Source: Nitrospinota bacterium (GTDB taxonomy: Bacteria; Nitrospinota; Nitrospinia; Nitrospinales; VA-1). From it: 14,452 nucleotides of DNA. Positions 1 to 14,452 of this stretch are shown one piece after another. Within the stretch, counting starts at the first letter, position 1. Every line of letters starts with the position of its first letter. The notes below the pieces were generated by a model. The model was not told where the DNA came from. It worked only from the letters and a program-made list of their open reading frames with translations, and searched no databases. Both the position numbers and the translations under genes were made by a program. The DNA lies in contig JAYNIA010000060.1 in assembly GCA_038108555.1 (NCBI GenBank), forward strand, positions 1 through 14,452, written 5' to 3'.

Positions 1-207
1 GGTATTGGATTTGATTCCCAGCACAGCAACAATATTTTCCAGCCCTTTGTGCGATTGAATGGGAGAAACCAATATGAGGGAACCGGAATTGGTTTGGCAA
101 TCTGCAAAAAAATTGTGGATCGCCATCAGGGCAAAATAATTCCCAGCAGTAAGAAAAATGACGGCTCCGTCTTCCAGGTGACTCTTCCGATCAAACAGGT
201 TTCCTGA
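1..207 (+). CDS. Sensor histidine kinase, C-terminal HATPase_c domain (5'-truncated by window edge)
   Basis: Frame 1 reads GIGFDSQHSNNIFQPFVRLNGRNQYEGTGIGLAICKKIVDRHQGKI...GSVFQVTLP then TGA at 205-207. This contains the G1 (GIG), F (IFQPF) and G2 (GTGIGLAIC) boxes. Absent from the ORF track because its start lies outside the window. Confidence 0.93.
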   Translation, partial: GIGFDSQHSNNIFQPFVRLNGRNQYEGTGIGLAICKKIVDRHQGKIIPSSKKNDGSVFQVTLPIKQVS

Positions 208-251
208 TTTTTTTTCTCTCCTTAATTTAGTTGCAATCCTTGAGGCCTCTC

Positions 252-1124
252 ATGGCAGAAAATCAAAAAAAGAATAATCTGTTCTGTTTTGGTTTCGGCT
301 TTACTGCAAAAGCATTGGCTCAGAGATTGCCCAATGCGGAATGGGAAGTTTCAGGCACCAGCCGGGAAAGAAATGATAAAGATTCTGAAGTTGGGGTGCT
401 GCCTTTTGATGGCACGGGCCCTTCCAAAGAGATCGGTCAAGCCCTTTCCAGGGCCACCCATTTGTTAATCACCATTCCCCCTCAGGTGGAAGGGGAGGTG
501 GTGTTAAAACATTTTGGTCCGAAAATTGCCGAAAATAATAAATTCAAATGGATTGGATACATATCTTCCACAGGGGTTTATGGAGACACTCAGGGCGAAT
601 GGGTGGATGAATCTTCTCCATTGCAGCCACAATCCGAACTTAATAAGCGACGCGTGGAGGCCGAAAAGGCCTGGATCCACTTTGCGGAAAAGCATGGCCT
701 CCCGGTAATGATTTTTCGGTGTGTGGCAATCTACGGTCCCAACAGAAACCTGCTGGTTTCTGTGAAGCAGGGGCGGGCAAGGCGTATTAAAAAACCGGGA
801 CTGGTTTTTTCCCGAATCCATGTGGAAGATTTAGCACAAACTCTTGACGCATCTATTCGAAATCCAAAATCCGGAGAGATCTATAATGTAAGCGATGATG
901 AGCCATCTCCGCCCTGGGAGACGGTCGAATATGCCTGTAGTCTCTTGAACGTTGAACCTCCACCATTAATTCCTTTTGAATCGGCAGAGTTATCAGAGTT
1001 GGCGCGCGGTTTTTATAAAACCTGCAAACGTGTGGGTAATAAAAAAATAAAGGAAGAATTGGGAGTCAAACTCAAATATCCCAATTATAAAATTGGATTG
1101 GACGCAATATTTGAAAAGTTATAG
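252..1124 (+). CDS. Atypical SDR / NAD(P)-dependent epimerase-dehydratase family protein (YeeZ-like)
   Basis: Rossmann motif FGFGFTA, SSTGVYG-D-x-x-G-E-WVDE, R-x-x-x-IYGP, SRIHVEDL, YNVSDD. ATG at 252 follows GAGG (242-245) and is preferred over the TTG at 231. Confidence 0.88.
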   Translation: MAENQKKNNLFCFGFGFTAKALAQRLPNAEWEVSGTSRERNDKDSEVGVLPFDGTGPSKEIGQALSRATHLLITIPPQVEGEVVLKHFGPKIAENNKFKWIGYISSTGVYGDTQGEWVDESSPLQPQSELNKRRVEAEKAWIHFAEKHGLPVMIFRCVAIYGPNRNLLVSVKQGRARRIKKPGLVFSRIHVEDLAQTLDASIRNPKSGEIYNVSDDEPSPPWETVEYACSLLNVEPPPLIPFESAELSELARGFYKTCKRVGNKKIKEELGVKLKYPNYKIGLDAIFEKL

Positions 1125-1138
1125 GTCCATCCATTAGT

Positions 1139-1888
1139 TCAAAGTCCAGTGGGGTAATGCAGAAACTCATTGTCGATATCAAATTTTTCTTTTAAGTGCT
1201 TGCCAATAGATTTTACCCCACCGGTTTCTGTGCCGTAATGGCCGGCAAAAATGAGAATGCAGTTTCCTTCAATTGCTTCGTGGAAATGGTGATTGGCACC
1301 TTCGCCCGTGATGTAGCAATCGAGCCCCTCTTTAATCGCTTGTCTGACGATGTCTGCTGCACCGCCCGTAACCAACCCCACGGTTTTAATTTCTCCCTGA
1401 CCGATTACTTTAACTTGTGAATCAAGTTTCTGTCCCAGCAATTTTCCCAGGTCTTCCGCAGATGTGGGAGTGATGGAACCTTTGAACCCAATTTTGATCC
1501 CATCATATTCGCCAAAAGGTTCCAGGTTTTCCAGTCCGATCAGATCCACCAGGGCTCGGTTATTTCCATGTACAGGATGAAGGTCGAGGGGTATATGAGC
1601 GGAATACAGTCCCAAGTTGGCTTTTATCATGGAGGATAGCTTTTCGTAATGCTGACCGCGTATGGGTTGCAGGCCCGACCAAAATGCACCATGATGAACA
1701 AACATCATTTGGCATTGTTTTTCGATAGCGAGATCAATCGTGGCCTGGCATAAATCGACGGCCAGTCCGATTTTTTTTATGTCTCCACGGTTTTGAACTT
1801 GTAATCCATTCAATGCATTCGGTGCATCGCGAATGGAATTAATTTCCAGAAGGTTGTCGAGATAGTGGCTGAGTTGTAGAATGTCCAT
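1139..1888 (-). CDS. ybgI: Nif3-like dinuclear metal-centre protein (DUF34/YbgI family)
   Basis: NGLQV, AVD, FVHHG, YSAHIPLDLHP..GNN, YITGE, AGHYGTE and C-terminal PTGL are characteristic of DUF34. ATG at 1888 chosen; TTG at 1894 is the alternative. Confidence 0.93.
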   Translation of the reverse strand: MDILQLSHYLDNLLEINSIRDAPNALNGLQVQNRGDIKKIGLAVDLCQATIDLAIEKQCQMMFVHHGAFWSGLQPIRGQHYEKLSSMIKANLGLYSAHIPLDLHPVHGNNRALVDLIGLENLEPFGEYDGIKIGFKGSITPTSAEDLGKLLGQKLDSQVKVIGQGEIKTVGLVTGGAADIVRQAIKEGLDCYITGEGANHHFHEAIEGNCILIFAGHYGTETGGVKSIGKHLKEKFDIDNEFLHYPTGL

Positions 1889-1892
1889 GTTC

Positions 1893-1925
1893 AAAAGTAT
1901 AACTTTTTACAGACGGCAGAGGCAA
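1893..1925. promoter_or_regulatory. Candidate bidirectional sigma70-type promoter between divergent nif3 and oppB
   Basis: Minus strand: TTGCCT (1925-1920), 18 nt, TATACT (1901-1896). Plus strand: TAACTT (1900-1905). Both sit in the dyad AAAAGT-ATA-ACTTTT (1893-1907). Only 39 bp lie between the two start codons. Confidence 0.45.
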
Positions 1926-1927
1926 TA

Positions 1928-2887
1928 GTGGTCAATTTTATTTTGCGCAATATAGGGCAGAGAATCATTCTGCTTGTATTAATTTCTATCATTTCCCATG
2001 CGATAGTTCATCTGGCTCCGGGAGAACCTGCGCTGGTTGACCCGTCCAATCCTCGCATGAAACCCGAAGACATCGCTCGTATTCGGGCTGCCTTTCATTT
2101 GGATGAGCCAATGCATACCCAATATATTTATTGGGTGAGAGATCTATTTACCGGCGAGTTGAAATCTTTTAAAGACAATCAGCCTGTGTTGGGGAAAATT
2201 TGGGAAAGGTTTCTCAACTCCCTTCCCTTATTTTTAATTGCAACTTTAATAACCTGGTGTTTGGCATTTCCTATAGGAATAAGTGCGGCCATAAACCGGG
2301 ACTCGACTTTCGACCGGTCGACTACTTTTATTTCTTTTGCCCTGATTTCCATTCCAGGATTTTTCCTTTCCTATTTGGTTATTATTTTTATGGTGGATAC
2401 GTTTAACGTTCCGGTTCTTGGAAGGCAGACTTTTGGATTAGAGGGAGCCTCGTTTTTATTTCAGTCGATGGACCGAATATGGCATTTAACTATCCCGTCA
2501 TTGATGTTGGCCATAGGGTCAACGGCTGTTCTTTCACGATATGTCCGATCCCAAATGCTGGAAGTGGTTCATCAGGACTATATGAGGACGGCCCGGGCAA
2601 AGGGACTTCCCGAAGATCAGGTTATATACAAGCATGGATTACGGAACGCATTATTGCCTTTTATAACCATGTTTGGTTTGACCATTCCGGGGCTCATCGG
2701 AGGGTCGGTTATTATTGAGCAGATATTTTCCTGGCCGGGAGTGGGAAGGCTCGGGTTCGAAGCCATATTGGCGAGAGACTTCCCCGTCATACTGACTTTG
2801 AATTTTATTGCCGCAGTGCTGGTTCTTTTGGGCACGCTAATATCTGACATTCTTTACGCCGTGGTTGATCCACGAATTAAATTTTAA
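1928..2887 (+). CDS. oppB: Peptide/nickel ABC transporter permease, OppB/DppB/AppB type
   Basis: N-terminal LAPGEP...LDEP..QY..W, multiple TM segments, EAA-loop region DYMRTARAKGL...HGLRNALLP, IEQIFSWPGVG, RDFP, DILYAVVDPRI. GTG start after GAGG. Confidence 0.92.
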   Translation: MVNFILRNIGQRIILLVLISIISHAIVHLAPGEPALVDPSNPRMKPEDIARIRAAFHLDEPMHTQYIYWVRDLFTGELKSFKDNQPVLGKIWERFLNSLPLFLIATLITWCLAFPIGISAAINRDSTFDRSTTFISFALISIPGFFLSYLVIIFMVDTFNVPVLGRQTFGLEGASFLFQSMDRIWHLTIPSLMLAIGSTAVLSRYVRSQMLEVVHQDYMRTARAKGLPEDQVIYKHGLRNALLPFITMFGLTIPGLIGGSVIIEQIFSWPGVGRLGFEAILARDFPVILTLNFIAAVLVLLGTLISDILYAVVDPRIKF

Positions 2888-2897
2888 GGATGAGACA

Positions 2898-3869
2898 GTG
2901 AGCAATCTGGAAACAAATTTAGAAGCCGATGCGCTTCCTCCTTCCAAGGGCATTTTTCAAGAGCGCTGGAGTATTCTCAAGCGGAACCGAATGGCTTATG
3001 CCAGCTATTGGTTTCTTATGCTTCTGTTGGCTCTTGCTTTTTTGGGAAAAATATTAACAAACTATATTGTTGTTTTTGATCCCAAAACGGTGCGACTCTC
3101 AGAAAAATTTTTGCCACCCTTGACTCCTTTCACAAGCACCATTACCCCTAAAGAAGATGCGCCCACCTTTGGGATTTATTTTTTTGGAACCGATGAGTTG
3201 GGACGCGATGTCTTCGCGAGAATGCTGGAGGGAACGTCTGTTTCCCTGAGCGTTGGGTTTGTCGCCGTAGGAATTATGTTGACGGTAGGAATTTTTTTAG
3301 GAGGTATCGCCGGTTATTATGGCAGGAAGAAGCTGTGGTTTTTAACGGTGGATACACTCATCATGCGGTTTGTTGACATTATGTTGTGTTTTCCCACTTT
3401 CTTTTTAATTCTTACTGTCGTGGCCTTATTGCCTCCGAGCATTTACAACATCATGATCGTGATTGGATTAACGAGCTGGATGGGAACCGCTCGTTTTGTT
3501 CGGGCCGAGTTTTTATCGCTTCGCGATCAGGATTTTGTTGCAGCGGCCCGCAGTCAGGCCATCCCGGAGTGGCGAATCATTTTTGTTCATATGGTTCCCA
3601 ATGCAATTGCCCCGGTGTTGGTTTCAGCAACGCTCGGTGTGGCCTCTGCAATACTTACGGAGTCGGCTTTGAGTTTTTTAGGGTTTGGGGTCCAACCTCC
3701 TGATGCGACCTGGGGAAACATACTTTCTGATGGAAAAAACTTTTTGTTTGATGCCCCCTGGCTCACTTTTATTCCGGGTATAACAATTCTTATGGTTGTG
3801 CTTGCGTTTAATCTTTGTGGAGAAGGTTTGCGCGAAGCCTTCAATCCGAAACTAAAACAAACAACTTAA
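2898..3869 (+). CDS. oppC: Peptide/nickel ABC transporter permease, OppC/DppC/AppC type
   Basis: FGTDELGRDVFAR, GGIAGYYG, MRFVDIML.FP, ARFVRAEFLSLR.QDFVAAA, ESALSFLGFG..PP..TWG, FNLCGEGLREAFNPK. GTG at 2898 lies 7 nt after AAGGA and is preferred over the TTG at 2865. Confidence 0.92.
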   Translation: MSNLETNLEADALPPSKGIFQERWSILKRNRMAYASYWFLMLLLALAFLGKILTNYIVVFDPKTVRLSEKFLPPLTPFTSTITPKEDAPTFGIYFFGTDELGRDVFARMLEGTSVSLSVGFVAVGIMLTVGIFLGGIAGYYGRKKLWFLTVDTLIMRFVDIMLCFPTFFLILTVVALLPPSIYNIMIVIGLTSWMGTARFVRAEFLSLRDQDFVAAARSQAIPEWRIIFVHMVPNAIAPVLVSATLGVASAILTESALSFLGFGVQPPDATWGNILSDGKNFLFDAPWLTFIPGITILMVVLAFNLCGEGLREAFNPKLKQTT

Positions 3870-3902
3870 CTCCCTCAAAATTTCGTCCTATTTTCCCAGA
3901 GG

Positions 3903-4005
3903 AACCCTGTGATATTAGTATTGGAAGAAATATGCATCTGGAAGCTTTTTTGAGATAGATTGCGAAATAACGTAGTGACCTATTTGTTCAGGGAAACCCT
4001 GTGAT
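3903..4005 (+). repeat. 11-bp exact direct repeat AACCCTGTGAT (3903-3913 and 3995-4005), each copy containing a GTG preceded by a purine-rich SD-like sequence
   Basis: Read directly from the sequence. Period is 92 bp, with imperfect similarity on both flanks. Confidence 0.6.
3909..3953 (+). CDS. Putative 14-aa leader peptide (MILVLEEICIWKLF) upstream of the ABC-F gene
   Basis: AGAGGA (3898-3903), 5 nt, GTG at 3909, open to TGA at 3951-3953. Its start context duplicates that of the ABC-F gene. Confidence 0.3.
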   Translation: MILVLEEICIWKLF

Positions 4006-5971
4006 TTTTGTTGAAAAGATAAATAAACAGTTTGGCCCGAAAATTATTTTTCGGGATGTGAGTTTTCATTTGCGCCCTAGAGAAAAGGTGGGTCTGGTCG
4101 GTGAAAATGGGACCGGTAAAACCACGTTATTTAAGATAATCACTGGCAAGGAGTCATTGGATGCCGGGCGGGTGACTTTGCGAAAGGGTTTGCGTTACGG
4201 TTTGCTTGAGCAGCATCAGGAAGGAGGGGAGGAAACCGCTCTTGAAAGAGTGGTGATGGGAGATTCTTATTTCCAGCAGGTTAAAAACGAAATGGAGAAG
4301 CTGGAAGCCGATCAAAACTTCCAGGATCGTTACGGTGAGTTGCAGCATGAGTTTGAGCGCCTGGGGGGATATGACCGTGAGGCGCGGGCTAAAATTATAA
4401 TGCAGGGACTGGGCTTTAAGCCCAGCCAATGGGAGAGTTCATTGAATCAGCTTTCCGGCGGTTGGCGTATGCGCGTGGAGTTGTCGCGCATTTTGCTGCA
4501 GAACCCTGATGTGTTGCTACTCGATGAACCTTCAAACCACCTCGATCTGCAATCGGTGATTTGGTTGGAATCTTTTTTAAAATCGTTTGAAGGCAGTGTT
4601 TTATTGATTTCGCATGACAGGAAATTTTTGAATACCCTGGCTACCCGAATTTTTGAGTTGGAACGTTCCAGATTGACGATCTATGCCGGAAACTATGATG
4701 ACTATGAAAAACAAAAAGAGGCACAGCGAGTTCAACTTGAATCTCAGGCGGCCAACCAGAATCGCCGAATAGCGGAGGTAGAACGATTTATTGAAAGGTT
4801 TCGGGCAAAAAACACTAAAGCCACACAGGTGCAAAGCAGGATAAAAATGCTGGATAAAATGGATCGGATACAAACTCCTGAAAGTAGTAAGGCGATCCAT
4901 TTCCGGTTTCCCCAGCCTGTCAGAACAGGAAGAAATGTTCTTGAGATAGACAATGTGACCAAATGTTATGGAGAATTAAAAGTTTATGAAAAATTTTCCA
5001 TCACTTTGGAAAGAGGATGGAAAGTGGCTTTAGCCGGTGAAAATGGAGCGGGGAAGTCCACCCTTCTTAAAATGATGGCAGGGGTGCTTCAGCCGGATGG
5101 TGGCGAGGTCAAGATGGGGGTTAAAGTGTCCCGTTCTTATTTTGCACAGCATCAGGGGGAAACCCTGAATGAGAACCATACCGTTTTAGAATCCTTACAA
5201 GAGTCCGCCCCCGGTCTTTTACGGACCCAACAAAGAAACATTCTTGGAGCCTTTTTATTTTCCGGCGAGGAGGTTGACAAAAAAGTTTCGGTGTTGTCGG
5301 GAGGTGAAAAGTCCCGTCTGGCTTTGGCGCGAATGCTTTGTGGCGATTCGCAATCCGATAATAAGATTTCCGGGGACTCTGGAGTTTCTCCTCCACCTTC
5401 ATTTATTTTACTGGATGAACCTACAAACCATCTCGACATTCGTTCGCGTGAACACCTTGCTGCCGTTTTATCGGATTATGAGGGCAGTTTGATTATCATC
5501 TCACATGACCGTTATTTTCTTGATGGATTCGTCAATAAAGTCTGGGAAGTTTCGAACGGGCAAGTCCGTGAATACGATGGAAACTATAGTGAGTATGAAG
5601 AAGCTAAATTAAAAGAAGAAGCTTTTGAGGAAAAAGGAAAATCCGTAGCAGGAGAAAAAAGTGCTCCCGGCAGTTCTGCTTTAGATAAGGACAGAAAGAG
5701 GAAAGAAGCGGAAGAAAGAAATTTGCGTTACAAGAAATTAAAACCGTTGGAGACCAGACTGGTGGAAGTGGAAAACCGGTTGGAGGTTTTGATGGAAGAG
5801 AATCAAAAGATTCAGTCTGAGCTTGCAGATGCGGGTATTTATGAAGCAGACCAGAAAGACCGTTTGATGAAAACCATGGAACAGCAACGAAACCTTAAAG
5901 AGGAAGAGCAAAGTTTAATGGAAGAATGGGATGAGCTCACCGCTTCCATTGAACAGGTCCAAAAGACTTAG
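4001..5971 (+). CDS. ABC-F family ribosome-associated ATPase (YheS/YdiF/Uup-like) with C-terminal coiled-coil domain
   Basis: Two NBDs: GENGTGKTT/LSGGWRMR/LLLDEPSNHLD/ISHDR and GENGAGKST/LSGGEKSR/ILLDEPTNHLD/ISHDR. Inter-domain linker GNY..Y...FIERFRAKNTKATQVQSRIKML. No TM segments. Coiled-coil tail ending EEWDEL. Confidence 0.95.
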   Translation: MIFVEKINKQFGPKIIFRDVSFHLRPREKVGLVGENGTGKTTLFKIITGKESLDAGRVTLRKGLRYGLLEQHQEGGEETALERVVMGDSYFQQVKNEMEKLEADQNFQDRYGELQHEFERLGGYDREARAKIIMQGLGFKPSQWESSLNQLSGGWRMRVELSRILLQNPDVLLLDEPSNHLDLQSVIWLESFLKSFEGSVLLISHDRKFLNTLATRIFELERSRLTIYAGNYDDYEKQKEAQRVQLESQAANQNRRIAEVERFIERFRAKNTKATQVQSRIKMLDKMDRIQTPESSKAIHFRFPQPVRTGRNVLEIDNVTKCYGELKVYEKFSITLERGWKVALAGENGAGKSTLLKMMAGVLQPDGGEVKMGVKVSRSYFAQHQGETLNENHTVLESLQESAPGLLRTQQRNILGAFLFSGEEVDKKVSVLSGGEKSRLALARMLCGDSQSDNKISGDSGVSPPPSFILLDEPTNHLDIRSREHLAAVLSDYEGSLIIISHDRYFLDGFVNKVWEVSNGQVREYDGNYSEYEEAKLKEEAFEEKGKSVAGEKSAPGSSALDKDRKRKEAEERNLRYKKLKPLETRLVEVENRLEVLMEENQKIQSELADAGIYEADQKDRLMKTMEQQRNLKEEEQSLMEEWDELTASIEQVQKT

Positions 5972-6186
5972 TCTTCAGGTAAATAAAAAGGCCCTTTTGA
6001 TTTTAGCCACTGAAGTTCCTTATCGCTTTTACAAAGTGAAAAAAGCTTTTTATTTAACTCTGAAATTTCTTTTTGGCATTGAATCAATTCGTTCAGTGTG
6101 CTTTTTAAAGTTTTTTGCGATGAGCGAACGGTATCTTCCCCGTTCTCTTTCAAAATGTCCGGTTGGCAGGTTTTGGGATATTCCAT
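5968..6186 (-). CDS. Small hypothetical protein (72 aa), predicted coiled coil
   Basis: Strong SD GGGGAG about 7 nt before ATG. Fills an otherwise empty intergenic gap, its TAA overlaps the ABC-F TAG, and it shows a heptad pattern in LKSTLNELIQCQKEISELNKKL. Confidence 0.6.
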   Translation of the reverse strand: MEYPKTCQPDILKENGEDTVRSSQKTLKSTLNELIQCQKEISELNKKLFSLCKSDKELQWLKSKGPFYLPED

Positions 6187-6233
6187 TTAGATTCTCCCCA
6201 AATTTTTTAATGCATTTAATTTTTAATAGGCTT

Positions 6234-6263
6234 AGAGTAGCATAAAAAAAAACATACTGTAAA
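6234..6263 (-). promoter_or_regulatory. Candidate sigma70 promoter for the 72-aa gene
   Basis: Minus strand TTTACA (6263-6258), 18 nt containing a T9 tract, then extended -10 TG-C-TACTCT (-10 at 6239-6234). Confidence 0.4.
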
Positions 6264-6331
6264 TGTTTTTGTTTTATGGTTAAGCGTTTGTTTTATTGTG
6301 TTTAAGGCGATTTTAATTTGGTGGAATTAAT

Positions 6332-6871
6332 ATGGAATGGACTTTTTTTCTTCTCGGCGGGTTGGTTGTTTTGGCGGGAATGGTGGTTTTGCCCATTTTT
6401 GCTGGGGCACCCTGGCATCCACTCTTGCCGGGAACGATCCGCCGGATTTTGAAATTTTCAGAAATCAAACCCGGTGAAACTATTTGCGATTTAGGTTGTG
6501 GCGATGGACGGGTTTTAATCACCGCTGCTAAAGATTATTCGGCGAAAGGAGTGGGAGTTGAAATTGATCCGATTAAAGTCGGTCTGGGAAGGTTGCTTTC
6601 AAAATTGAAAGGGGTCGAAGATCGGGTAAATATTGTTCGCGGAAATATTTTTGAGTTTGACCCCGGGGATGCAGATGTGCTGTATCTTTATCTTACCCAT
6701 CAGGCGATGGATAAACTTTTTCCCGAGCTTTTAAAAAAACTAAAACCCACGGTGCGAATTGTTTGCTACCGGTTTTGTATTCGGGGGATGATTCCTGAAA
6801 AAGTCAGTGCGGATAAAACTCTTTTCCTCTACCAACTTACCAAGGGTAGTGAGATAAATAGTTTTATATAA
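6332..6871 (+). CDS. Class I SAM-dependent methyltransferase with N-terminal TM anchor (FAM173/aKMT-like putative protein-lysine methyltransferase)
   Basis: Hydrophobic residues ~3-25, then GAPWHP, motif I DLGCGDGR, GVEIDP (post-I), GNIF, ADVLYLYL, LKPTVRIVCYRF. Confidence 0.85.
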   Translation: MEWTFFLLGGLVVLAGMVVLPIFAGAPWHPLLPGTIRRILKFSEIKPGETICDLGCGDGRVLITAAKDYSAKGVGVEIDPIKVGLGRLLSKLKGVEDRVNIVRGNIFEFDPGDADVLYLYLTHQAMDKLFPELLKKLKPTVRIVCYRFCIRGMIPEKVSADKTLFLYQLTKGSEINSFI

Positions 6872-6878
6872 GAGTCAG

Positions 6879-8936
6879 TTATTTTGTTTCCATATTATTA
6901 TCTGTCCGTGGTTCTGCCCATTGCACGACGCCTTCCCAGACATAAGCCGAGCGGTTGCCACGTTTGACCACCAACCAGTTTTTGTTATTCATTTCAATAT
7001 TTGTTCGGCGGACGAACTCCACTTCTGCGCCTTTTTTCAGGCTGATAATTTTGGGAAAGACCGTCCCCGGTCCTTTGCGCAAGGCAACCCCATCTACGGA
7101 AATTCTTAAAATCTTTTTGGGGTCTACTGGCGGTCGAACCATTTTCGGAGTTGCTTTTTTCTTCACCTCTGCAGGTGCCACAGGGGGTGTCGGCGGTTTA
7201 ACGATGGGTTTTTCCGGGGCTGGAGTAAAAGCCTCCGGCATGGCCATTTTAGGTGCAGCCGGTTTTGTCATGGTTTGTGCGCCTGAAACTGAAGGCATCA
7301 CTGGAGGCACGGTTTTTTCGGTCATGGTCTTCGTTCCTGAAATTGAAGGCATAACCGGAGGTGTTGTCTGCCGGGTTTTTGGTGCTGCTGGTTTTGGCGC
7401 AACGGGAGTTCTTACAGGGGGTGGGGGTGTCGTATCCTTTTCGGGTGGGGGTAAAGATGCCACCACCTCGCCAGGAGAGTCTGAGAATTTTACGAAAATG
7501 GGATTGGAAACCAGATGGTCTGTTGAATTGACCATGGCCTTAACTCGGTAATAGGCGCGTCCCTCTTGTTTGTTTCCAACATCTCTCCAGGTCAACTCAT
7601 AAGGTAGTGAAACGGATTCTTGTTTTACCAATACCCCGTTTCGGATAATTTGGATTTGTGCAGTTTTATTCCCACCCTTAATGGAACGCAATTTTATTTT
7701 AACCGCTGGAAAGTCAGTTGAGGTCAGTTCCTGTCCAAGCGTTGCCTGCTGGCCTGTTTTTTGATCTTGAACGGTAAATTCATCGAGAGAAAGTCTGTTG
7801 TCATCGGCTTGCCGGACGGCATACATGCGGCCTTTTCTCATCGCATCCAAAAGAGTGTCGCGATTTTTTTCACGTACCAGAAAAACGGTTCTTACAGATC
7901 CCAATCGGTCTCCATTCTGGTCCTCACAAAGGTAGTCGTTTCCACCATAACCCCAAACGGGTTGATTGCGTTTGCCCTGCAAGTATTCCATAAGTACCTG
8001 GTCCCATTGCTGCCCTGCCTCCGCCTGTTGGATGGGATCGTCTCCAACCACTTGAAACCCGGTATAGTTTTTTGTTTTTAAAAGATCGTCAGGATGGGGA
8101 GGGGTTTCCAGATTGGTTGTTCCATATTGTCGAGTTCCGTGTTTAGCTTCCATATGGTTCCAGAAAACCAGCGCGCCTTTGGAATTCGCATAGTCGATCA
8201 TATTTTGATATGGCTTCATTCCCTGATCCCCATGATACGCATCAAACGGAGAACTTTTAAAAGGATGGTTGTTGATCGTTAACAATAACAATAGAACCAT
8301 CAAGGGAAAAGAAAGGACACGGACATACCCCTTGTAAACCGCGCCCACACTTACCATAAACAGGAATCCTAGGATTATGAATTGATTGAGCAGGGAGTCG
8401 GTATAGTTTAATGAAAGGTTGCTGTTTTGCAGCGGCAGTTGTTCGTAATCTTCTGCAGAGGATAGCCCGACAATCATCAGGTGTTTGTCCCAATTATGTG
8501 CGGTCAGGTTTTTATCAAAATTACTGCCCGACCAATAATAATGGGGGATGGTTTCTACTCCTGGAATCAGGAGTGTTTGTTTTATCTGTCGATTGTTATC
8601 ATTAATTTCGGAAATAAATCCGGCAGCACCGCGTTGGAGGACAGAAGGCCCTTCAGTGGTGTTTTTGAATATCCGTTCAAAGGGTTTGGCTCCAAATTCT
8701 ATAGAGTTTCTTGCGTAATCCCCGAAGATTACCGCATCAATCCCCATTCTTTCAGATTGGTTGCCAATGTCCTTAACAGAAGCGCAGCCCTCGCTGAAAT
8801 TTGTTTTTATATCTGCGATGCCATCAAGTTGGATATAAATGGCAAAAGAGGAAGAGGGGAAGGCCAGGGCAATCCAGAAAACCAGCAAGACACACCAGCG
8901 ATATAAATTTGAATTTTTAAGTGGGCAAAAAAACAT
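6879..8936 (-). CDS. Exported multidomain protein: signal peptide, degenerate PHP-like (CehA/McbA-type) barrel with inserted TM hairpin, Ig-like domain, Pro-rich linker, C-terminal bacterial SH3 domain
   Basis: Signal peptide ending ...PSSSFA. PHP-spaced motifs GIADIKTNFSEG, IFGDY, IPGVE, KHL, FWNH, GGNDY, LDAMRKGRMYA. Ig-like tail YYRV...SNPIFV. SH3b-like VALRKGPGT.FPKI..LKKGAEV...W..V.....AYVW. Start uncertain (ATG 8936, TTG 8945 or 8957). Confidence 0.8.
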   Translation of the reverse strand: MFFCPLKNSNLYRWCVLLVFWIALAFPSSSFAIYIQLDGIADIKTNFSEGCASVKDIGNQSERMGIDAVIFGDYARNSIEFGAKPFERIFKNTTEGPSVLQRGAAGFISEINDNNRQIKQTLLIPGVETIPHYYWSGSNFDKNLTAHNWDKHLMIVGLSSAEDYEQLPLQNSNLSLNYTDSLLNQFIILGFLFMVSVGAVYKGYVRVLSFPLMVLLLLLTINNHPFKSSPFDAYHGDQGMKPYQNMIDYANSKGALVFWNHMEAKHGTRQYGTTNLETPPHPDDLLKTKNYTGFQVVGDDPIQQAEAGQQWDQVLMEYLQGKRNQPVWGYGGNDYLCEDQNGDRLGSVRTVFLVREKNRDTLLDAMRKGRMYAVRQADDNRLSLDEFTVQDQKTGQQATLGQELTSTDFPAVKIKLRSIKGGNKTAQIQIIRNGVLVKQESVSLPYELTWRDVGNKQEGRAYYRVKAMVNSTDHLVSNPIFVKFSDSPGEVVASLPPPEKDTTPPPPVRTPVAPKPAAPKTRQTTPPVMPSISGTKTMTEKTVPPVMPSVSGAQTMTKPAAPKMAMPEAFTPAPEKPIVKPPTPPVAPAEVKKKATPKMVRPPVDPKKILRISVDGVALRKGPGTVFPKIISLKKGAEVEFVRRTNIEMNNKNWLVVKRGNRSAYVWEGVVQWAEPRTDNNMETK
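7267..7361 (-). repeat. Intragenic tandem duplication, 54-bp period (PPVMPSISGTKTMT / PPVMPSVSGAQTMT)
   Basis: 7267-7307 vs 7321-7361 match at 33 of 41 nt by manual comparison. Confidence 0.85.
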
Positions 8937-9069
8937 TGAAGCCAAAATTTCTCCCAAACAACAAAAATTTAAAATTTCAAGCTCAATCCTTTGGCGGATT
9001 TTATTAAAAATCCTTGTGCCAAAATATTCTTATCCAATTTTAGACCTTAAAATTTATCCAGTCCTCAGA

Positions 9070-9084
9070 AAGTATGATATACTT
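9070..9084 (+). promoter_or_regulatory. Candidate extended -10 (TG-A-TATACT) for the romR-like gene, inside the dyad AAGTAT-GAT-ATACTT
   Basis: TG at 9075-9076, TATACT at 9078-9083, inverted repeat 9070-9075 / 9079-9084. No convincing -35. Confidence 0.4.
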
Positions 9085-9133
9085 AAATGGTTGAGATTGC
9101 ACCCCTTAGCTGTTTAAAAATTGCTTTCAGGGG

Positions 9134-9179
9134 GCCGGAAAAAATAAAAACCGGGAAAATTTCTTTCGATTTTTCCGGC
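9134..9179. repeat. Inverted repeat GCCGGAAAAA / TTTTTCCGGC with a second internal left arm CCGGGAAAAT
   Basis: Perfect 10-bp arms at 9134-9143 and 9170-9179. The segment 9151-9160 can pair with 9169-9178 with one G-U pair. Confidence 0.7.
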
Positions 9180-9289
9180 TTAATTAGCAATCGTCCATTT
9201 GAAATGGTTCAACCGGTTTGAAACTCCAATACCAAAAATTTTCCCACTTCGTGGGCTCGCCAAAATAAAATTCTAATGGGTAGACTTTT

Positions 9290-10798
9290 ATGACATTAAG
9301 AATTCTTGTCGCAGATGACAGTATTACCATCCAGAAAATAGTTGCCATGGCTTTTGAAAATGAAGATGTAGAAGTCGAAGGCATTGGTGATGGGCAGGAG
9401 GCATTGGACAAAATTCCTGAATTTAAACCGGATATAGTTCTGGCAGATGTGGATATGCCCGGACTTGATGGTTTTCAACTGTCAGAGAAAATAAAGGAAA
9501 ACCCAGACCTTGCCAATATAAAGGTCTTACTTTTAGCCAGCGATTTTGAAGATTTCGATGAAGGACGTTTCAATAAATGCCAGGCGGAAAACCATATCTC
9601 CAAACCTTTTAAATCCGATGATATTGTTCAAATGGTGACTCAGGTTATGGAAGGAGCCCAGGCAAAGGCTCCAGCCGAAGAAGTTCTGGTGGATGAAGTT
9701 GCTCCAGTTGAAGAACCTGAGGCGGATGCAGAACCCAGCCTGGAGGAACTTTTGGAATCGGTTGAAAAACTCTCTACCGATGCCTTGGATATTGCGGACG
9801 AAAAGGAACCTGTTGAAGAAATTGAAGATCTGCCCACCCCTGTTGAGCCGGTTGAGGCACATGAACCGGAAGAGGTTCCTGAAGTAGAAGAAGAGATTAT
9901 CGAAGAGCCTTCAACCGTTATCGATGATGATATTTTGAGCGGGATGATTCAGGATGTGGGAAAAGAAATCAGTCAGGATGCGGCAGCCCCTGCCGTCAGT
10001 GATGAAGGTATTTCAGGTGACCAGGTGGCAGAGGTTGAAGAGGAAATTGCCCCTGAACCTGCTTTCACTGGAGATAACGATATTCTCGGTGAAATGATCC
10101 ATGAGGTCGAAACCGAACTGGAAGAGCAAGGTTCTGAACCGGAACCTGTTCTTGAAGAGCAAACATTTGATAACGACATTCTCGGTGAAATGATTCAAGA
10201 GGTGGAAACTGAACTGGAAGAAAAAGTTTCAGAGCCAGAACCTGTTTTTGAAGAGCAAACTTTTTCAGATGAGGTTTTTGCGGAAGTCCAGCCCAGAAAG
10301 ATGGATAACCTCGATGACCTCGATTCTGCTTTCAAAGAGATTGTTGCGCGTGAAGCAAAGAAGGAACCGGTTTCCCAGGTAGAAGCCAAAGAATCTGAGA
10401 TGTCGGCATTAGGAGGCATTGTTCCTGAGCCGGAAGACCTTCTCGAAAGAATGGCCCCCGGAGCGTTTTCAGAATCTGAAAGACGGCCTCACACTCCCGA
10501 AGAAATAGATGAAAACCTCAACTCGATCATAGGTTCGGCTTCCTATGGAGCCACCTCTTATCAGGATTCCCGATTGAAGGAAATGGATTTTGAAAACAAC
10601 GATGACCGATTTATTCAGGTTACCGGTGAGCAGGTAAAGCAGGTTCTGGAGAAGTCGCTGGATTCGTCATTGCAAAAAGAAATGTCTGGCCTGTCTGAGC
10701 TAATTGTGAAGACCATTCGGGAGGTTGTCCGGGAAATCACGCCGGGAATCGCCAGGTCCGTCATCCGCGAAGAGATTGAAAAAATCAAAAAGATTTAA
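9290..10798 (+). CDS. romR: RomR-like polarity response regulator: receiver domain, long acidic disordered linker, conserved helical C-terminus
   Basis: Receiver ILVADDSITIQKIV..F...PDIVLADV.MPG..G...LLLA..FE.FDE.R.....A..HI.KPF closely follows Myxococcus RomR as I recall it (D53, A83, H102, K105). C-terminus IREVVREITPGIARSVIREEIEKI resembles RomR-C (IAWEVVPQLAETIIREELERL). Located directly upstream of valS. Confidence 0.8.
   Translation: MTLRILVADDSITIQKIVAMAFENEDVEVEGIGDGQEALDKIPEFKPDIVLADVDMPGLDGFQLSEKIKENPDLANIKVLLLASDFEDFDEGRFNKCQAENHISKPFKSDDIVQMVTQVMEGAQAKAPAEEVLVDEVAPVEEPEADAEPSLEELLESVEKLSTDALDIADEKEPVEEIEDLPTPVEPVEAHEPEEVPEVEEEIIEEPSTVIDDDILSGMIQDVGKEISQDAAAPAVSDEGISGDQVAEVEEEIAPEPAFTGDNDILGEMIHEVETELEEQGSEPEPVLEEQTFDNDILGEMIQEVETELEEKVSEPEPVFEEQTFSDEVFAEVQPRKMDNLDDLDSAFKEIVAREAKKEPVSQVEAKESEMSALGGIVPEPEDLLERMAPGAFSESERRPHTPEEIDENLNSIIGSASYGATSYQDSRLKEMDFENNDDRFIQVTGEQVKQVLEKSLDSSLQKEMSGLSELIVKTIREVVREITPGIARSVIREEIEKIKKI
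10073..10264 (+). repeat. Intragenic tandem repeat, 2 x 96 bp (32 aa), with a degenerate third copy starting at 9923
   Basis: DNDILGEMIHEVETELEEQGSEPEPVLEEQTF vs DNDILGEMIQEVETELEEKVSEPEPVFEEQTF: 28/32 aa and 83/96 nt identical. Degenerate copy DDDILSGMIQDV. Confidence 0.95.
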
Positions 10799-10883
10799 AT
10801 TCTTTCTTTATGGGTAATTTTTTGATAAAAAGCCCTCTCTCATTTCAATAAAATTAAGCTTATTTTGAATTTCCCGGATATGC

Positions 10884-10910
10884 TTGCCCCAAAATTGGGG
10901 TTTATAGAAT
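10884..10910 (+). promoter_or_regulatory. Dyad CCCCAA-AA-TTGGGG followed by TTTA, overlapping a candidate valS promoter (TTGCCC...TAGAAT); weak terminator or operator
   Basis: Inverted repeat at 10887-10900 and TAGAAT at 10905-10910. The TTGCCC spacer is only 15 nt, so the role is unclear. Confidence 0.3.
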
Positions 10911-10926
10911 TGCTTTTGATTTTTGA

Positions 10927-13578
10927 ATGATTCAACTAGACAAACAATATGAACCCGGTGAAGTAGAAAAACGCTGGGGAAAATTTTGGGAAGAAAAAAA
11001 CTTTTTTCATGCCGATGAAACCAGAGAGTCCTCTGCATTTTCTATCGTCATACCGCCCCCGAATATTACGGGCCGACTCCATATCGGTCACGCCTTCAAT
11101 AACACCCTTCAAGATATTCTTACCCGATGGAAAAGAATGCAGGGTTTTAACGCCCTGTGGCAACCGGGTACTGACCATGCAGGAATAGCGACGCAAAATG
11201 TAGTCGAAAAACAACTGCATGCGGAGGGAACCAACCGCCAGGATTTGGGAAGAGAAGAATTTGTCAGGCGGGTTTGGAAATGGCGGGATGAATCCGGGGG
11301 GACAATCACCGGTCAACTGAAAAAACTCGGATGCTCGTTGGATTGGGAGCGTGATCGCTTTACCATGGACGAAGGTCTGTCAAAAGCGGTGCGAGAAGTT
11401 TTCGTTACATTATATGAAGAAGATCTTATCTATAAGGGCGATTACATCATCAACTGGTGTCCGCGTTGTCATACTGCACTTTCAGATCTTGAGGTGGAAC
11501 ATCAAGATACCCAGGGGCATTTGTATCATTTAAAGTATCCCTTAAAAGATAGCGAAGATTTTCTGGTAATAGCCACGACTCGGCCCGAAACCATGCTGGG
11601 GGACACGGCAGTTGCGGTAAACCCCGAAGATGAGCGGTATCAGGGACATAAAGGAAAAAAGCTGATGTTGCCGGTTTTGAACCGGGAGATCCCGCTCATT
11701 GAAGATGGATATGTGGATACTACTTTTGGTACCGGTGCGTTGAAAGTGACTCCGGCACACGATCCGAACGATTTTGAATTGGGTCAACGGCATGAGTTGG
11801 AAACTATAAATGTTATGAATCCCGATGGAACCATGAATTCCCTCGCAGGTTCAGCTTATGAAGGTTTAGACCGATTTGAGTGTCGCAAAAAGCTGGTGGC
11901 CGACTTAAAAGAGTCAGGAGTTTTAGTCAAGATTGAAGACTTGAACCATTCTGTCGGGCATTGTTACCGTTGTCGAACGGTCGTAGAACCCTATCTTTCC
12001 AAACAGTGGTTTGTGGATGCAAAAACACTTGCCAAACCTGCATTAAAAGCGGTGAAGGATGGAAGTATAAAAATAGTTCCAAAGTTTTGGGAGAATACCT
12101 ATTTCGATTGGATGGAAAACATCCGTGACTGGTGCATTTCTCGACAAATCTGGTGGGGCCATCAAATACCGGCATGGAATTGTGGAGATTGTGGCGAGAT
12201 TATTGTGGCCCGCGAAACCCCTGAATCCTGTACAGCTTGTTCTTCTAAAAATCTGGTTCAGGAAACAGACGTGCTGGACACCTGGTTCAGTTCTGCTCTT
12301 TGGCCATTTTCCACTTTGGGCTGGCCCGAAAAAACCGAAAGCCTCAAACGTTTTTATCCCACCTCAGTGCTTTGTACGGGATTCGACATACTGTTCTTCT
12401 GGGTAGCACGAATGATCATGATGGGCATCAAGTTCATGGGTGATGTTCCTTTTAAGGATGTCTATATTCATGCATTGATCCGTGATGCTGAAGGTCAAAA
12501 GATGAGCAAAACAAAGGGAAACGTGATCGATCCCCTGGAAGTTATGGAGAAGTATGGAACGGATGCGTTGCGTTTTACACTTGCCGCTTTTGCCGCCCAG
12601 GGAAGGGATATTAAACTTGCGGAAGATCGAATAGAAGGTTATCGAAACTTTTGCAATAAACTTTGGAATGCTTCCCGTTTTGTATTTATGAACCTGGAAG
12701 ACTACAAAGGTTCCTGTGTCCTTGATAATACAAATACTTTATCAAAACCGGATCGCTGGATATTGAGTCGGTTGAATCAGGCGACAAAAGATGTGAATGA
12801 GGCTTTGGAGGCTTTCAGGTTCAACGACGCGGCATTAACTGTTTATAAGTTTATTTGGAACGAGTATTGTGACTGGTATATCGAGCTTGCAAAACCCAAA
12901 TTATCCGGATCACCTGAGGAAAGAGCGGCAACACAAAATGTGCTGATTCATGTTCTGGATTCTGCGCTCAAACTCTTGCATCCTTTCATGCCGTTTATCA
13001 CCGAAGAAATTTGGCAAAAACTACCTCAGAATGAAAACAGCATTATGGTCAGTGCCTTTCCTGAGTTTCAGGAATCGCAAACCGATGAAGAAATAGAAAA
13101 AGAAATGCAAGTGATAATGGAAGTCATTACCGGCATTAGGAATATCCGTGGTGAGATGAATTTGAATCCGGGATTGAAATTAAACGTATTAATTAAAACC
13201 CAAAACCCCGAAATTCAAAAATCCCTGCTGGATCAGGTTGATTATATAAGGGAATTGGCCCGAGTGGAACGGATGGAAGCAGGCTCAAATATAGAAAAAC
13301 CCAAGGTGTCTGCGTCTTCGGTTCTCGGAGAAATGGACCTGATTATTCCTCTCGAAGGTCTGATGGATTTTGAAGAAGAACGCAACAGGGTAGAAAAAGA
13401 GTTGAAAAAAATTGAAAAAGACCTCATATTTTTAGATAAGAAACTATCCAACCCGAATTTCGTTAAGAAAGCACCTGCCGAAGTTATCGAAAAGGACGAA
13501 CACCGAAAGACTTCACTTTCTGAAAAGCAGGCAAAGCTTGAAATTCATTTGAAAACCATTAAACAGGGTTTATGTTGA
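10927..13578 (+). CDS. valS: Valine--tRNA ligase
   Basis: PPPNITGRLHIGH (HIGH motif), PGTDHAGIATQ, ATTRPETMLGDTAVAV, DWCISRQIWWGH, DVLDTWFSS, KMSKTKGN, anticodon-binding domain and C-terminal coiled coil (KLSNPNFVKKAP). Confidence 0.99.
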   Translation: MIQLDKQYEPGEVEKRWGKFWEEKNFFHADETRESSAFSIVIPPPNITGRLHIGHAFNNTLQDILTRWKRMQGFNALWQPGTDHAGIATQNVVEKQLHAEGTNRQDLGREEFVRRVWKWRDESGGTITGQLKKLGCSLDWERDRFTMDEGLSKAVREVFVTLYEEDLIYKGDYIINWCPRCHTALSDLEVEHQDTQGHLYHLKYPLKDSEDFLVIATTRPETMLGDTAVAVNPEDERYQGHKGKKLMLPVLNREIPLIEDGYVDTTFGTGALKVTPAHDPNDFELGQRHELETINVMNPDGTMNSLAGSAYEGLDRFECRKKLVADLKESGVLVKIEDLNHSVGHCYRCRTVVEPYLSKQWFVDAKTLAKPALKAVKDGSIKIVPKFWENTYFDWMENIRDWCISRQIWWGHQIPAWNCGDCGEIIVARETPESCTACSSKNLVQETDVLDTWFSSALWPFSTLGWPEKTESLKRFYPTSVLCTGFDILFFWVARMIMMGIKFMGDVPFKDVYIHALIRDAEGQKMSKTKGNVIDPLEVMEKYGTDALRFTLAAFAAQGRDIKLAEDRIEGYRNFCNKLWNASRFVFMNLEDYKGSCVLDNTNTLSKPDRWILSRLNQATKDVNEALEAFRFNDAALTVYKFIWNEYCDWYIELAKPKLSGSPEERAATQNVLIHVLDSALKLLHPFMPFITEEIWQKLPQNENSIMVSAFPEFQESQTDEEIEKEMQVIMEVITGIRNIRGEMNLNPGLKLNVLIKTQNPEIQKSLLDQVDYIRELARVERMEAGSNIEKPKVSASSVLGEMDLIIPLEGLMDFEEERNRVEKELKKIEKDLIFLDKKLSNPNFVKKAPAEVIEKDEHRKTSLSEKQAKLEIHLKTIKQGLC

Positions 13579-13620
13579 CCCGTAGAGAAAAGTTGCCCTT
13601 TCTCCACTTCTCATTTATTT

Positions 13621-14452
13621 ATGGATGCTAAAGCAGGAACTTTGACGCGTGAAGAAATTTCCGAACAATCCCAATGGGATCTGTCGGGATTATATTCATC
13701 GAACGAAGCATGGAATGAAGATTTCAAATCGTTGGAAAACGATTTGAAAAAATATTCCGGTTTTCAAAATACACTTGCGCACTCTTTTTCCAGACTCAAA
13801 GAATGTCTCGAATTTGATATGAACTTTTCCAGGAAGTTGGAGAAGCTTTATACCTTTGCTCATTTAAAAAATGATGAAGATAAGACCAACAGTCATCATC
13901 AGGGAAATTTTGAAAAAGCAATGCGGCTTTTAAATGAGGCGGGAAGTGCATCCAGTTTCATACGCCCGGAAATTATGTCTATTCCGCAAGAGAAAATGAG
14001 CCAATTCCTCGAAGAAAAGGGAATGGAGTTTTACCGTTTCCATTTGGAGCAGATCTTGCGATATCGCGAACATACCCTGTCGGAAAAAGAAGAAAAACTG
14101 CTTGCCCAGACGGGTGAAATGAGCCGGGCTGCGAGAGATGGGTTCGACATGCTGGACAATGCAGATCTTCAGTTGGGCGAAGTCGAAGATGAAAAGGGAG
14201 AAAAAATTACCTTGACGCACGGTAATTTTCAGAGCCTGATGCAGAATTATGATCGCCGCGTTAGAAAGGATGCTTTTCATACCTATTATAAAGCTTATGA
14301 GTCCCATCGTTTCACCTACTCAACATTGTTAGCCTCAAGCGTTAAAAAGGATTTGTTTTATTCACGCGCCCGTAATTATTCAAACTATAGAGCCAAAGCG
14401 TTGTTTTCGGAGAATATTGACGAAGGGGTTTATGACAACCTGATTGAATCGG
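13621..14452 (+). CDS. pepF: Oligoendopeptidase F (peptidase M3B), 3'-truncated by window edge
   Basis: Manual translation: MDAKAGTLTREEISEQSQWDLSGLY...LEKLYTFAHLKNDED...SFIRPEI...YREHTLSEKEEKLLA...FDMLDNADL..G...LTHGNF...DRRVRKDAF...ARNY...ALF..NI...VYDNLI. Open to the window end. The HExxH motif lies beyond the window. Confidence 0.93.
   Translation, partial: MDAKAGTLTREEISEQSQWDLSGLYSSNEAWNEDFKSLENDLKKYSGFQNTLAHSFSRLKECLEFDMNFSRKLEKLYTFAHLKNDEDKTNSHHQGNFEKAMRLLNEAGSASSFIRPEIMSIPQEKMSQFLEEKGMEFYRFHLEQILRYREHTLSEKEEKLLAQTGEMSRAARDGFDMLDNADLQLGEVEDEKGEKITLTHGNFQSLMQNYDRRVRKDAFHTYYKAYESHRFTYSTLLASSVKKDLFYSRARNYSNYRAKALFSENIDEGVYDNLIES

Follow-up and report, generated by a model that had tools for sequence, protein, structure and literature searches.

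The RomR family is described as having a common build of a receiver, an unstructured linker and a C-terminal region termed RomR-C (Keilberg 2012, PMC3441718; Carreira 2023, PMC10329633; Kodesia 2025, PMC12719032). According to passages of these papers, RomR-C forms trimers (PMC10329633, PMC12719032), is not homologous to characterised domains and, just as the linker does, suffices for polar targeting in Myxococcus xanthus (PMC3441718). The 2012 genome survey states that every intact RomR co-occurred with MglA and MglB, and taxon-specific linkers were already noted there (PMC3441718). Two contact residues of RomR have been reported, Trp394, which is required for MglC binding (PMC12719032), and Glu108, which forms a salt bridge with RomX (bioRxiv 2024.02.20.581209). 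PopZ, which passages of the PopZ papers treat as alphaproteobacterial, carries a trimer-forming region, H3H4 (PMC12999525), and a popZ-valS neighbourhood was noted for two species (PMC5686542). The gene that we compare with these systems lies at positions 9290..10798 (+ strand) of a 14,452-nt stretch of DNA from a Nitrospinota bacterium (assembly GCA_038108555.1, contig JAYNIA010000060.1, positions 1 to 14,452), hereafter called the window. Its open reading frame (ORF) encodes 502 amino acids (aa) arranged as receiver, acidic disordered linker and helical tail.

The host genome, which is 91.85% complete, belongs to the Nitrospinaceae and is a relative of marine nitrite-oxidisers. Receiver tree, tail profile and valS synteny identify the predicted protein as a RomR orthologue. 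Because the invariant tryptophan of the family is replaced by Arg481, we file it as a previously undescribed variant and not as a canonical member. On balance, from sequence and by analogy with characterised relatives, this Nitrospinales RomR, for which no Mgl partners were found, is probably a stand-alone, tail-trimerising scaffold of the cell pole whose tail shares its ancestry with that of PopZ.

A variant RomR encoded next to valS

The receiver (positions 9302..9637, + strand; aa 5-116) is the only Pfam domain found in the protein (Response_reg, E 1.2e-21), and scans with Pfam and NCBIfam gave no match for the linker or the tail. In an AlphaFold2 model based on a 14-sequence alignment, the receiver is folded, the linker is of low confidence and contains six short helices, and a single long helix runs from residue 437 to 501. 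Sequence searches of the PDB retrieved generic receivers only and no RomR-C or PopZ chain; in the ESM Atlas all leads stayed under the bar of 0.9, including one Myxococcota cluster (0.89) and one DUF2497 cluster (0.81). The named homologues of the protein come from Nitrospinaceae and Nitrospinota, and the gene is present in one copy in most Nitrospinota genomes.

Canonical RomR tails, here called Trp-type, were gathered by a motif scan of metagenomes, which yielded 120 loci of an estimated 770; as the scan pattern demands the tryptophan, this column is fixed by construction. One group of these is labelled "myxobacterial-like" for its fit to the M. xanthus numbering given in print, including the D371-W394 spacing. 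In that numbering an Asp stands 23 residues before the Trp, Glu-Lys occupies positions -4/-3 and a Glu is found at +8 (PMC12719032). A quick tree of 119 receivers over 125 columns placed the receiver in a single clade of 81 rows (SH-aLRT 96) together with Trp-type, myxobacterial-like and Nitrospirota RomR receivers, to the exclusion of the other 38 receivers of its own genome in the tree; it is thus assigned to the RomR subfamily.

The C-terminal helix (positions 10598..10792, + strand; aa 437-501) is modelled by AlphaFold2 with a pLDDT of 70-90 and is amphipathic, with a hydrophobic moment of 0.45-0.67. A preliminary description of this DNA had predicted an amphipathic helix of about 55 aa at this end; the helix is as described but slightly longer, about 65 aa. 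When 20 Nitrospinales-type tails were aligned with 23 Trp-type RomR-C sequences, HHalign returned 96.35%, and a second RomR-C comparison, with proline-anchored blocks, gave 96.8%. A RomR-C matrix of 102 Trp-type tails ranked the 502-aa protein first of 8230 ORFs of the host genome, counted in six frames as in all own-genome ranks below, with 29.8 bits against 10.0 for the next ORF. Pro485 corresponds to the invariant proline of RomR-C and is conserved in 20 of the 20 Nitrospinales-type tails. The tail turned up in 107 of 120 Nitrospinota genomes; the count is 55 of 57 for near-complete genomes and 94 of 102 for Nitrospinales, the order to which the window belongs. With a receiver in the RomR clade and a tail that matches RomR-C, the suggestion that both ends of the protein are of RomR type was borne out; the helix is a homologue of RomR-C with a distant likeness to PopZ H3H4.

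The valyl-tRNA synthetase gene valS (positions 10927..13578, + strand) starts 128 nt after the stop codon. Among 65 Nitrospinota-type loci, a few of which are the same genome fetched twice, two lacked room and two had no tail match; valS lies directly downstream in 60 of the remaining 61. The adjacency of RomR and valS in Nitrospinota is beyond chance. Of 63 Trp-type RomR loci with room, 45 have valS no more than 1.5 kb away, the spacer measuring 1.1-1.4 kb in six of these. For popZ, valS lies within 1.5 kb downstream in 25 loci among the 30 that scored best out of 85. Both the immediate neighbourhood of valS and the statement that romR and popZ are each valS-linked, which for popZ agrees with PMC5686542, therefore stand as first described.

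Relationship of the tail to PopZ

A canonical RomR-C profile that was built without PopZ gave 31 matches at E<=1 in 101 alphaproteobacterial genomes. Thirteen of these, including five of the best six, fall on popZ, which had been located independently with DUF2497. The tallies over the 101 genomes include one unpublished genome (G156), and a further tally includes another, G545; the sequence of neither was used.

A second line of evidence came from a search of 1.84 billion proteins with the Nitrospinales tail profile, which returned 122 matches. When 28 low-ranking matches were scanned, three two-repeat proteins named Magnetococcales passed the DUF2497 cut-off (30.1, 27.9 and 29.9 bits). A profile of these three retrieved further ORFs in 301 Pseudomonadota genomes, and 20 loci were fetched: seven are ordinary alphaproteobacterial popZ genes, and 13 are receiver-less, very acidic ORFs directly before valS, whose assignment to Magnetococcia derives from named paralogues. 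The latter span 484-1120 codons and carry an H1 motif, in frame in 12 and in another frame in the 13th.

In pairwise comparisons of proline-anchored 40-column blocks, the Magnetococcia-type tails score 97.2% with RomR-C, 97.0% with PopZ and 96.0% with the Nitrospinales tail in HHalign. RomR-C and PopZ score 93.5% in such blocks and 88.3% with the tool's own alignments. In all six pairs the observed score exceeds every one of 40 heptad-preserving column shuffles, and the helices taken from 28 windows of valyl-tRNA synthetase (ValRS) score at most 13.8, as compared with 23.8-46.0 for the observed tail pairs. The Magnetococcia tail profile in turn ranks the 502-aa protein first of the 8230 ORFs (34.9 bits). 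It is therefore reasonable to propose that the RomR-C and PopZ tails likely stem from a common ancestor, as had been surmised in the preliminary description; the blind popZ matches, the Magnetococcia intermediates and the null tests all point in this direction. Among open-licence papers and bioRxiv we found no paper stating a relationship between RomR and PopZ.

The Magnetococcia-type loci (L097-L108, L114; e.g. G258:C147:29000-36500) have a D-Ala-D-Ala carboxypeptidase gene (checked in L097), followed by the acidic H1-bearing ORF and valS. The receiver-less ORF is likely a giant PopZ orthologue of this class, with a predicted tail midway between RomR-C and PopZ. The genomes also encode a second protein of about 120 aa that consists of two copies of the tail helix (L085-L096; P0211, P0212, P0216, P0219). 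No valS was seen up to 1.5 kb from it. A CheW-receiver gene is located close to one copy (L095), and in one version (P0219) the protein is fused to CheX. From its sequence, this protein may tether chemotaxis proteins to the scaffold.

Related tails were encountered elsewhere. Three receiver-less acidic proteins (P0200, P0233, P0227) combine the same tail with an N-terminal acidic I-I-E-L motif and weak DUF2497 scores, and P0200, named Thermodesulfobacteriota, has four tail repeats. Nitrospirota-type RomR proteins (P0254-P0372) contain the Trp-bearing tail motif in two tandem copies. Of 30 gammaproteobacterial stretches upstream of valS, five (L272, L274, L277, L283, L293) contain a small acidic ORF that belongs to no known family and shows PopZ-like traits. 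An H1-like start is present in L272 and L283, DUF2497 matches L274 with E 0.025, and only L274 beats its own-proteome null; as putative PopZ relatives these ORFs are a weak lead.

No MglA, MglB or MglC found in Nitrospinales

MglA was found in none of the 102 Nitrospinales genomes and in eight of the 120 Nitrospinota genomes overall; Roadblock domains, which represent MglB and MglC, were found in none of the 102 and in six of the 120. Thus, the Nitrospinales RomR is an orphan, as no MglA, MglB or MglC was found in the order. The preliminary description had suggested searching the genome for these partners and for parAB. While parAB is present, the Mgl proteins are not found, and their absence throughout the order had escaped notice.

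The positions that contact partners in M. xanthus differ as well. Arg481 (positions 10730..10732, + strand) occupies the place of Trp394, and Arg is found here in 18 of the 20 Nitrospinales-type tails. At the position of Lys108 (positions 9611..9613, + strand), matched to Glu108 by numbering, all 148 Nitrospinota-type proteins, many of which are close relatives of one another, have Lys, and all 55 Trp-type RomR have Asp or Glu. Both known partner-binding residues thus appear charge-reversed, the position match to M. xanthus being taken from the published numbering. The retention of RomR in a whole order in which MglA, MglB and MglC were not found suggests that RomR has a basic role independent of Mgl. 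This is relevant to the question, raised in PMC10329633, of how RomR reaches the pole.

In the deep-branching family f7 (G108:C10; L027, L032) we observed an mglB-mglA pair flanked by two more Roadblock genes. The MglA of this family has 376 aa and is extended by an extra C-terminal domain.

Receiver and phosphorylation

The acidic pocket (D9, D10), the phospho-acceptor D53 and K105 are complete, and D9 and D53 are conserved in 148 of 148 homologues. The post-beta-4 switch position, aligned to the Thr of a solved receiver, is occupied by Ala83, which stands in an LASD context in 121 of the 148 homologues; Trp-type RomR receivers also often deviate at this position. The receiver had been called intact, which holds for these four residues but not for the switch Thr/Ser, so that it is not fully canonical. 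Phosphorylation-gated function, also proposed for the protein, fared less well. M. xanthus RomR D53 mutants are reported to be without effect (bioRxiv 10.1101/137695), and phospho-site mutants of Bdellovibrio RomR to have little effect (PMC6428892); an earlier report did describe effects of RomR phospho-site mutants (PMC3441718). Because of Ala83 and of these mutant phenotypes in M. xanthus and Bdellovibrio, gating of the 502-aa protein by phosphorylation appears doubtful, even though the complete conservation of D9 and D53 would still allow it despite Ala83.

Linker and H1-like helix

The mostly disordered linker (positions 9656..10579, + strand; aa 123-430) measures 308 aa, of which 30.8% are Asp or Glu (net charge -78) and 25.3% Pro, Ala or Val. 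These values agree with the earlier estimate of about 300 aa, one-third acidic and rich in Pro/Ala/Val. AlphaFold2 assigns a pLDDT mostly below 50 to aa 124-434, and both length and sequence of the linker vary among homologues. The six short helices within it are amphipathic, and one of them is copied by a recent in-frame tandem duplication (positions 10073..10264, + strand; 2 x 96 nt, 86% matches). With 31% Asp+Glu and 8% Pro, the linker compares with PopZ medians of 36% and 22%, respectively. The myxobacterial-like group has only 2-6% acidic residues, and at least 25% Asp+Glu is reached in nine of 55 Trp-type RomR linkers.

One short helix (positions 9731..9781, + strand; aa 148-164) resembles helix H1 of PopZ. 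An ungapped matrix of 32 alphaproteobacterial H1 motifs ranked this segment, which was picked after the fact since the motif had been spotted by eye before the matrix was built, first of 8230 ORFs with 19.8 bits (next, 18.4). One of 5000 shuffled linkers equals this score. True H1 helices reach 49-57 bits and those of Magnetococcia 12-26, and with a local PopZ H1 hidden Markov model (HMM) the segment ranked only 11th, with a non-significant E of about 7. The helix is present in 112 of 112 close homologues although the surrounding linker varies, and in ten of 39 Nitrospinota representatives (0.37 expected), but in none of the 55 Trp-type RomR linkers, where no score of 10 or above was seen. A second PopZ-type motif (acidic-V-L-E-L-T-like) occurs in eight of the 39 representatives (0.7 expected) and is absent from the 502-aa protein.

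In a ValRS tree of 45 rows, the H1-like helix is confined to one nested clade (g1+g9, support 99), in addition to cases in family f3, which has a different-looking version, and in f2, with one marginal score; it is missing from the deep Nitrospinota branches. An origin as a relic inherited from a common ancestor of RomR and PopZ is unsupported by this tree. Since it is confined to nested clades, the helix is probably recent, and the simplest reading would make it a client-binding element of late origin among the several short helices of the linker. The notion of a PopZ-like interior is consequently only partly upheld: the linker is acidic and the H1-like helix is real, but the acidity is not special, because nine of 55 Trp-type linkers share it, and the helix is limited to nested clades. 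For the same reason, a diverged RomR is a better description of the protein than a RomR/PopZ hybrid by inheritance.

Proposed role and alternative explanations

A stand-alone pole scaffold would work as follows. The tail would trimerise, as RomR-C and PopZ H3H4 do in published work, and the protein would sit at the cell pole, by analogy with RomR of M. xanthus and Bdellovibrio and with PopZ. The acidic linker may serve as a charged, repelling spacer, and its short helices, among them the H1-like one, may bind clients, for instance components of pili, flagella or ParAB. The receiver with its remodelled surface probably serves to dock a new partner, and phosphorylation would have a modulating part at most. 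Candidate clients are at hand, as the genome encodes the polar machines PilT, PilU, flagellins, ParA and ParB; FimV was not found in the host genome.

Several observations weigh against this proposal. The protein has no DUF2497 match at E<=1; of the two profiles that had been suggested for the tail, RomR-C was matched (HHalign 96.35%, see above) but DUF2497 was not. Compared directly with alphaproteobacterial PopZ, the tail gives a weak match, with 74-79% in HHalign across 20-24 columns, and over the 101 alphaproteobacterial genomes only two of 11 weak matches of the Nitrospinales tail profile fall on popZ, a tally that leaves out a contig of Nitrospina type in the mixed bin G120. What the tails share is a short amphipathic helix, about 25-40 residues long. 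Furthermore, Trp loss and Mgl loss are not cleanly coupled at the base of the phylum, where family f7 keeps mglAB yet has Arg at the Trp position and two f9 genomes keep the Trp with no mglAB found. The genome also has other polar or scaffold candidates, namely DivIVA and a bactofilin gene beside parAB. In further searches, DUF2497 has no match anywhere in the host genome at E<=10, PopZ_fam is not matched by tail or linker in the NCBIfam scan (E<=1), the 502-aa protein is not in the top five own-genome matches of a PopZ tail-block HMM, and a PopZ tail-block matrix places it first with just 9.8 versus 8.5 bits.

If the likeness to PopZ went further, D53 phosphorylation might switch a PopZ-type polar condensate whose H1-like helix recruits ParA/ParB as in PopZ. 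The first rank of that helix among 8230 ORFs, its retention in all 112 close homologues amid a varying linker, its absence from the 55 Trp-type linkers, the conservation of D9 and D53 in 148 of 148 proteins, a linker charge within the PopZ range (31% versus a median of 36%) and the presence of parAB all suit such a functional hybrid. We nevertheless regard it as unlikely: the helix scores 19.8 bits rather than the 49-57 of true H1, is not significant with the local HMM and is limited to the nested g1+g9 clade (support 99) and a different f3 version, being missing from deep branches; Ala83 replaces the switch Thr/Ser; P146 of PopZ is unmatched in register and no H2 equivalent is seen. The bactofilin gene that adjoins parAB would instead suit a ParAB scaffold of the Myxococcus type.

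Equally improbable, in our estimate, is that the protein is an ordinary diverged RomR with a merely convergent resemblance, trimer-forming helices and acidic linkers having arisen twice and the position next to valS being a coincidence. The weak direct match between tail and PopZ, the repeated emergence of acidic linkers within RomR (nine of 55), in keeping with the taxon-specific linkers mentioned in PMC3441718, and the recent look of the H1-like helix would fit convergence. It is countered by the 13 of 31 blind RomR-C matches on popZ, by the receiver-less H1-motif proteins directly before valS in 13 of 13 fetched Magnetococcia-type loci, whose tails match RomR-C (97.2%) and PopZ (97.0%) equally well, and by null tests that all lie far below the observed scores. 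A RomR orthologue could also have been kept for a non-polar job after Mgl loss, e.g. as a soluble adaptor for division, envelope or signalling proteins. Near-universal retention without Mgl, two partner surfaces that were remodelled and then strongly conserved, and a DivIVA that could mark the poles instead are compatible with this. We judge it very unlikely, given that RomR-C and linker are each described as enough for polar targeting in M. xanthus (PMC3441718), that passages on Bdellovibrio RomR portray it as still polar despite a rewired partner set, and that the related PopZ is polar.

Beyond the pole-scaffold reading, which we prefer, a wider scenario can be put forward more tentatively. 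RomR and PopZ might be two branches of one ancient valS-linked family of pole scaffolds, and the Nitrospinales RomR, freed from Mgl, may have moved towards a PopZ-like self-assembling scaffold with a client helix while keeping its receiver. The family would then range from Nitrospinota, Nitrospirota and deltaproteobacterial lineages via Magnetococcia to Alphaproteobacteria and perhaps Gammaproteobacteria, and a signalling hub would be seen turning into a condensate. If the tails do share an ancestor, two textbook polarity systems would have one origin, and the origin of the PopZ condensate could be tested in a graded series of Trp-type RomR, Nitrospinales RomR, Magnetococcia proteins and PopZ. 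New here are the blind test on genomes, the bridge through Magnetococcia, the failure to find Mgl genes in the whole order together with the apparent reversal of both contact residues, and the probably recent H1-like helix.

Neighbouring genes and further observations

Upstream of the RomR-family gene, a divergent gene (positions 6879..8957, - strand) encodes a CehA/McbA-like metallohydrolase region, a Pro-rich linker and a C-terminal SH3b domain. Such a gene adjoins the RomR-family gene in most Nitrospinales loci; nothing points to its membership in the RomR system. Promoter and terminator scans performed no better than chance.

Elsewhere in the host genome, the bactofilin gene lies directly after parA-parB (G000:C3:68413-71685; L242) and is a possible ParAB scaffold. 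At G000:C17:40894-41798 the FlhF profile is matched (positions 1-65 and 141-286) by two open frames that are distinct from each other, so a split or a frameshift may interrupt flhF in this assembly. Two records titled Emcibacteraceae and Nitrosomonadaceae (L003, L012) contain Nitrospina-type contigs with the RomR-valS locus. Both appear to be mixed bins, as G120 additionally carries a normal popZ.

Comparison with known systems

The Magnetococcia valS-linked proteins, undescribed in the papers searched, share with the protein an H1-like helix, a very acidic linker, a Trp-less tail and a gene position directly before valS; they differ in lacking a receiver and in their length of 484-1120 aa as open frames. 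PopZ (DUF2497, PF10691, which covers H2-H4; PopZ_fam, NF052660) has in common the acidic disordered linker and the gene before valS; its H1 is resembled by the helix at aa 148-164, and its tail pattern L/I-P-x-x-V/A-x-x-x-V/I-x-x-E-I is matched in the C-terminal helix. However, PopZ has no receiver, measures about 180-260 aa and bears H1 at the N-terminus, whereas here 502 aa include a receiver and the H1-like helix lies inside the linker. W151 of PopZ corresponds to Val, and P146, the hexamer proline, has no counterpart in register.

For Bdellovibrio bacteriovorus RomR the comparison is by description. There, too, RomR is portrayed as reused as a polar hub with new partners and little dependence on phosphorylation (Lowry 2019, PMC6428892; bioRxiv 2023.11.29.569176); in contrast to its shortened receiver and its MglA, the Nitrospinales protein has a whole receiver and MglA was not found in the order. 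Relative to M. xanthus RomR, the supposedly invariant Trp is Arg, the positions of E390/K391/E402 are R/E/R and Glu108 is Lys. The linker is 31% acidic, as opposed to 2-6% in myxobacterial-like RomR, and unlike the RomR proteins of the 2012 genome set, which always came with MglA and MglB, the Nitrospinales RomR is accompanied by no detected MglA, MglB or MglC. What the M. xanthus RomR family and this protein share is the three-part build, the receiver clade, a homologous tail with the conserved proline and a terminal I-x-E-E-I, and a gene that precedes valS.

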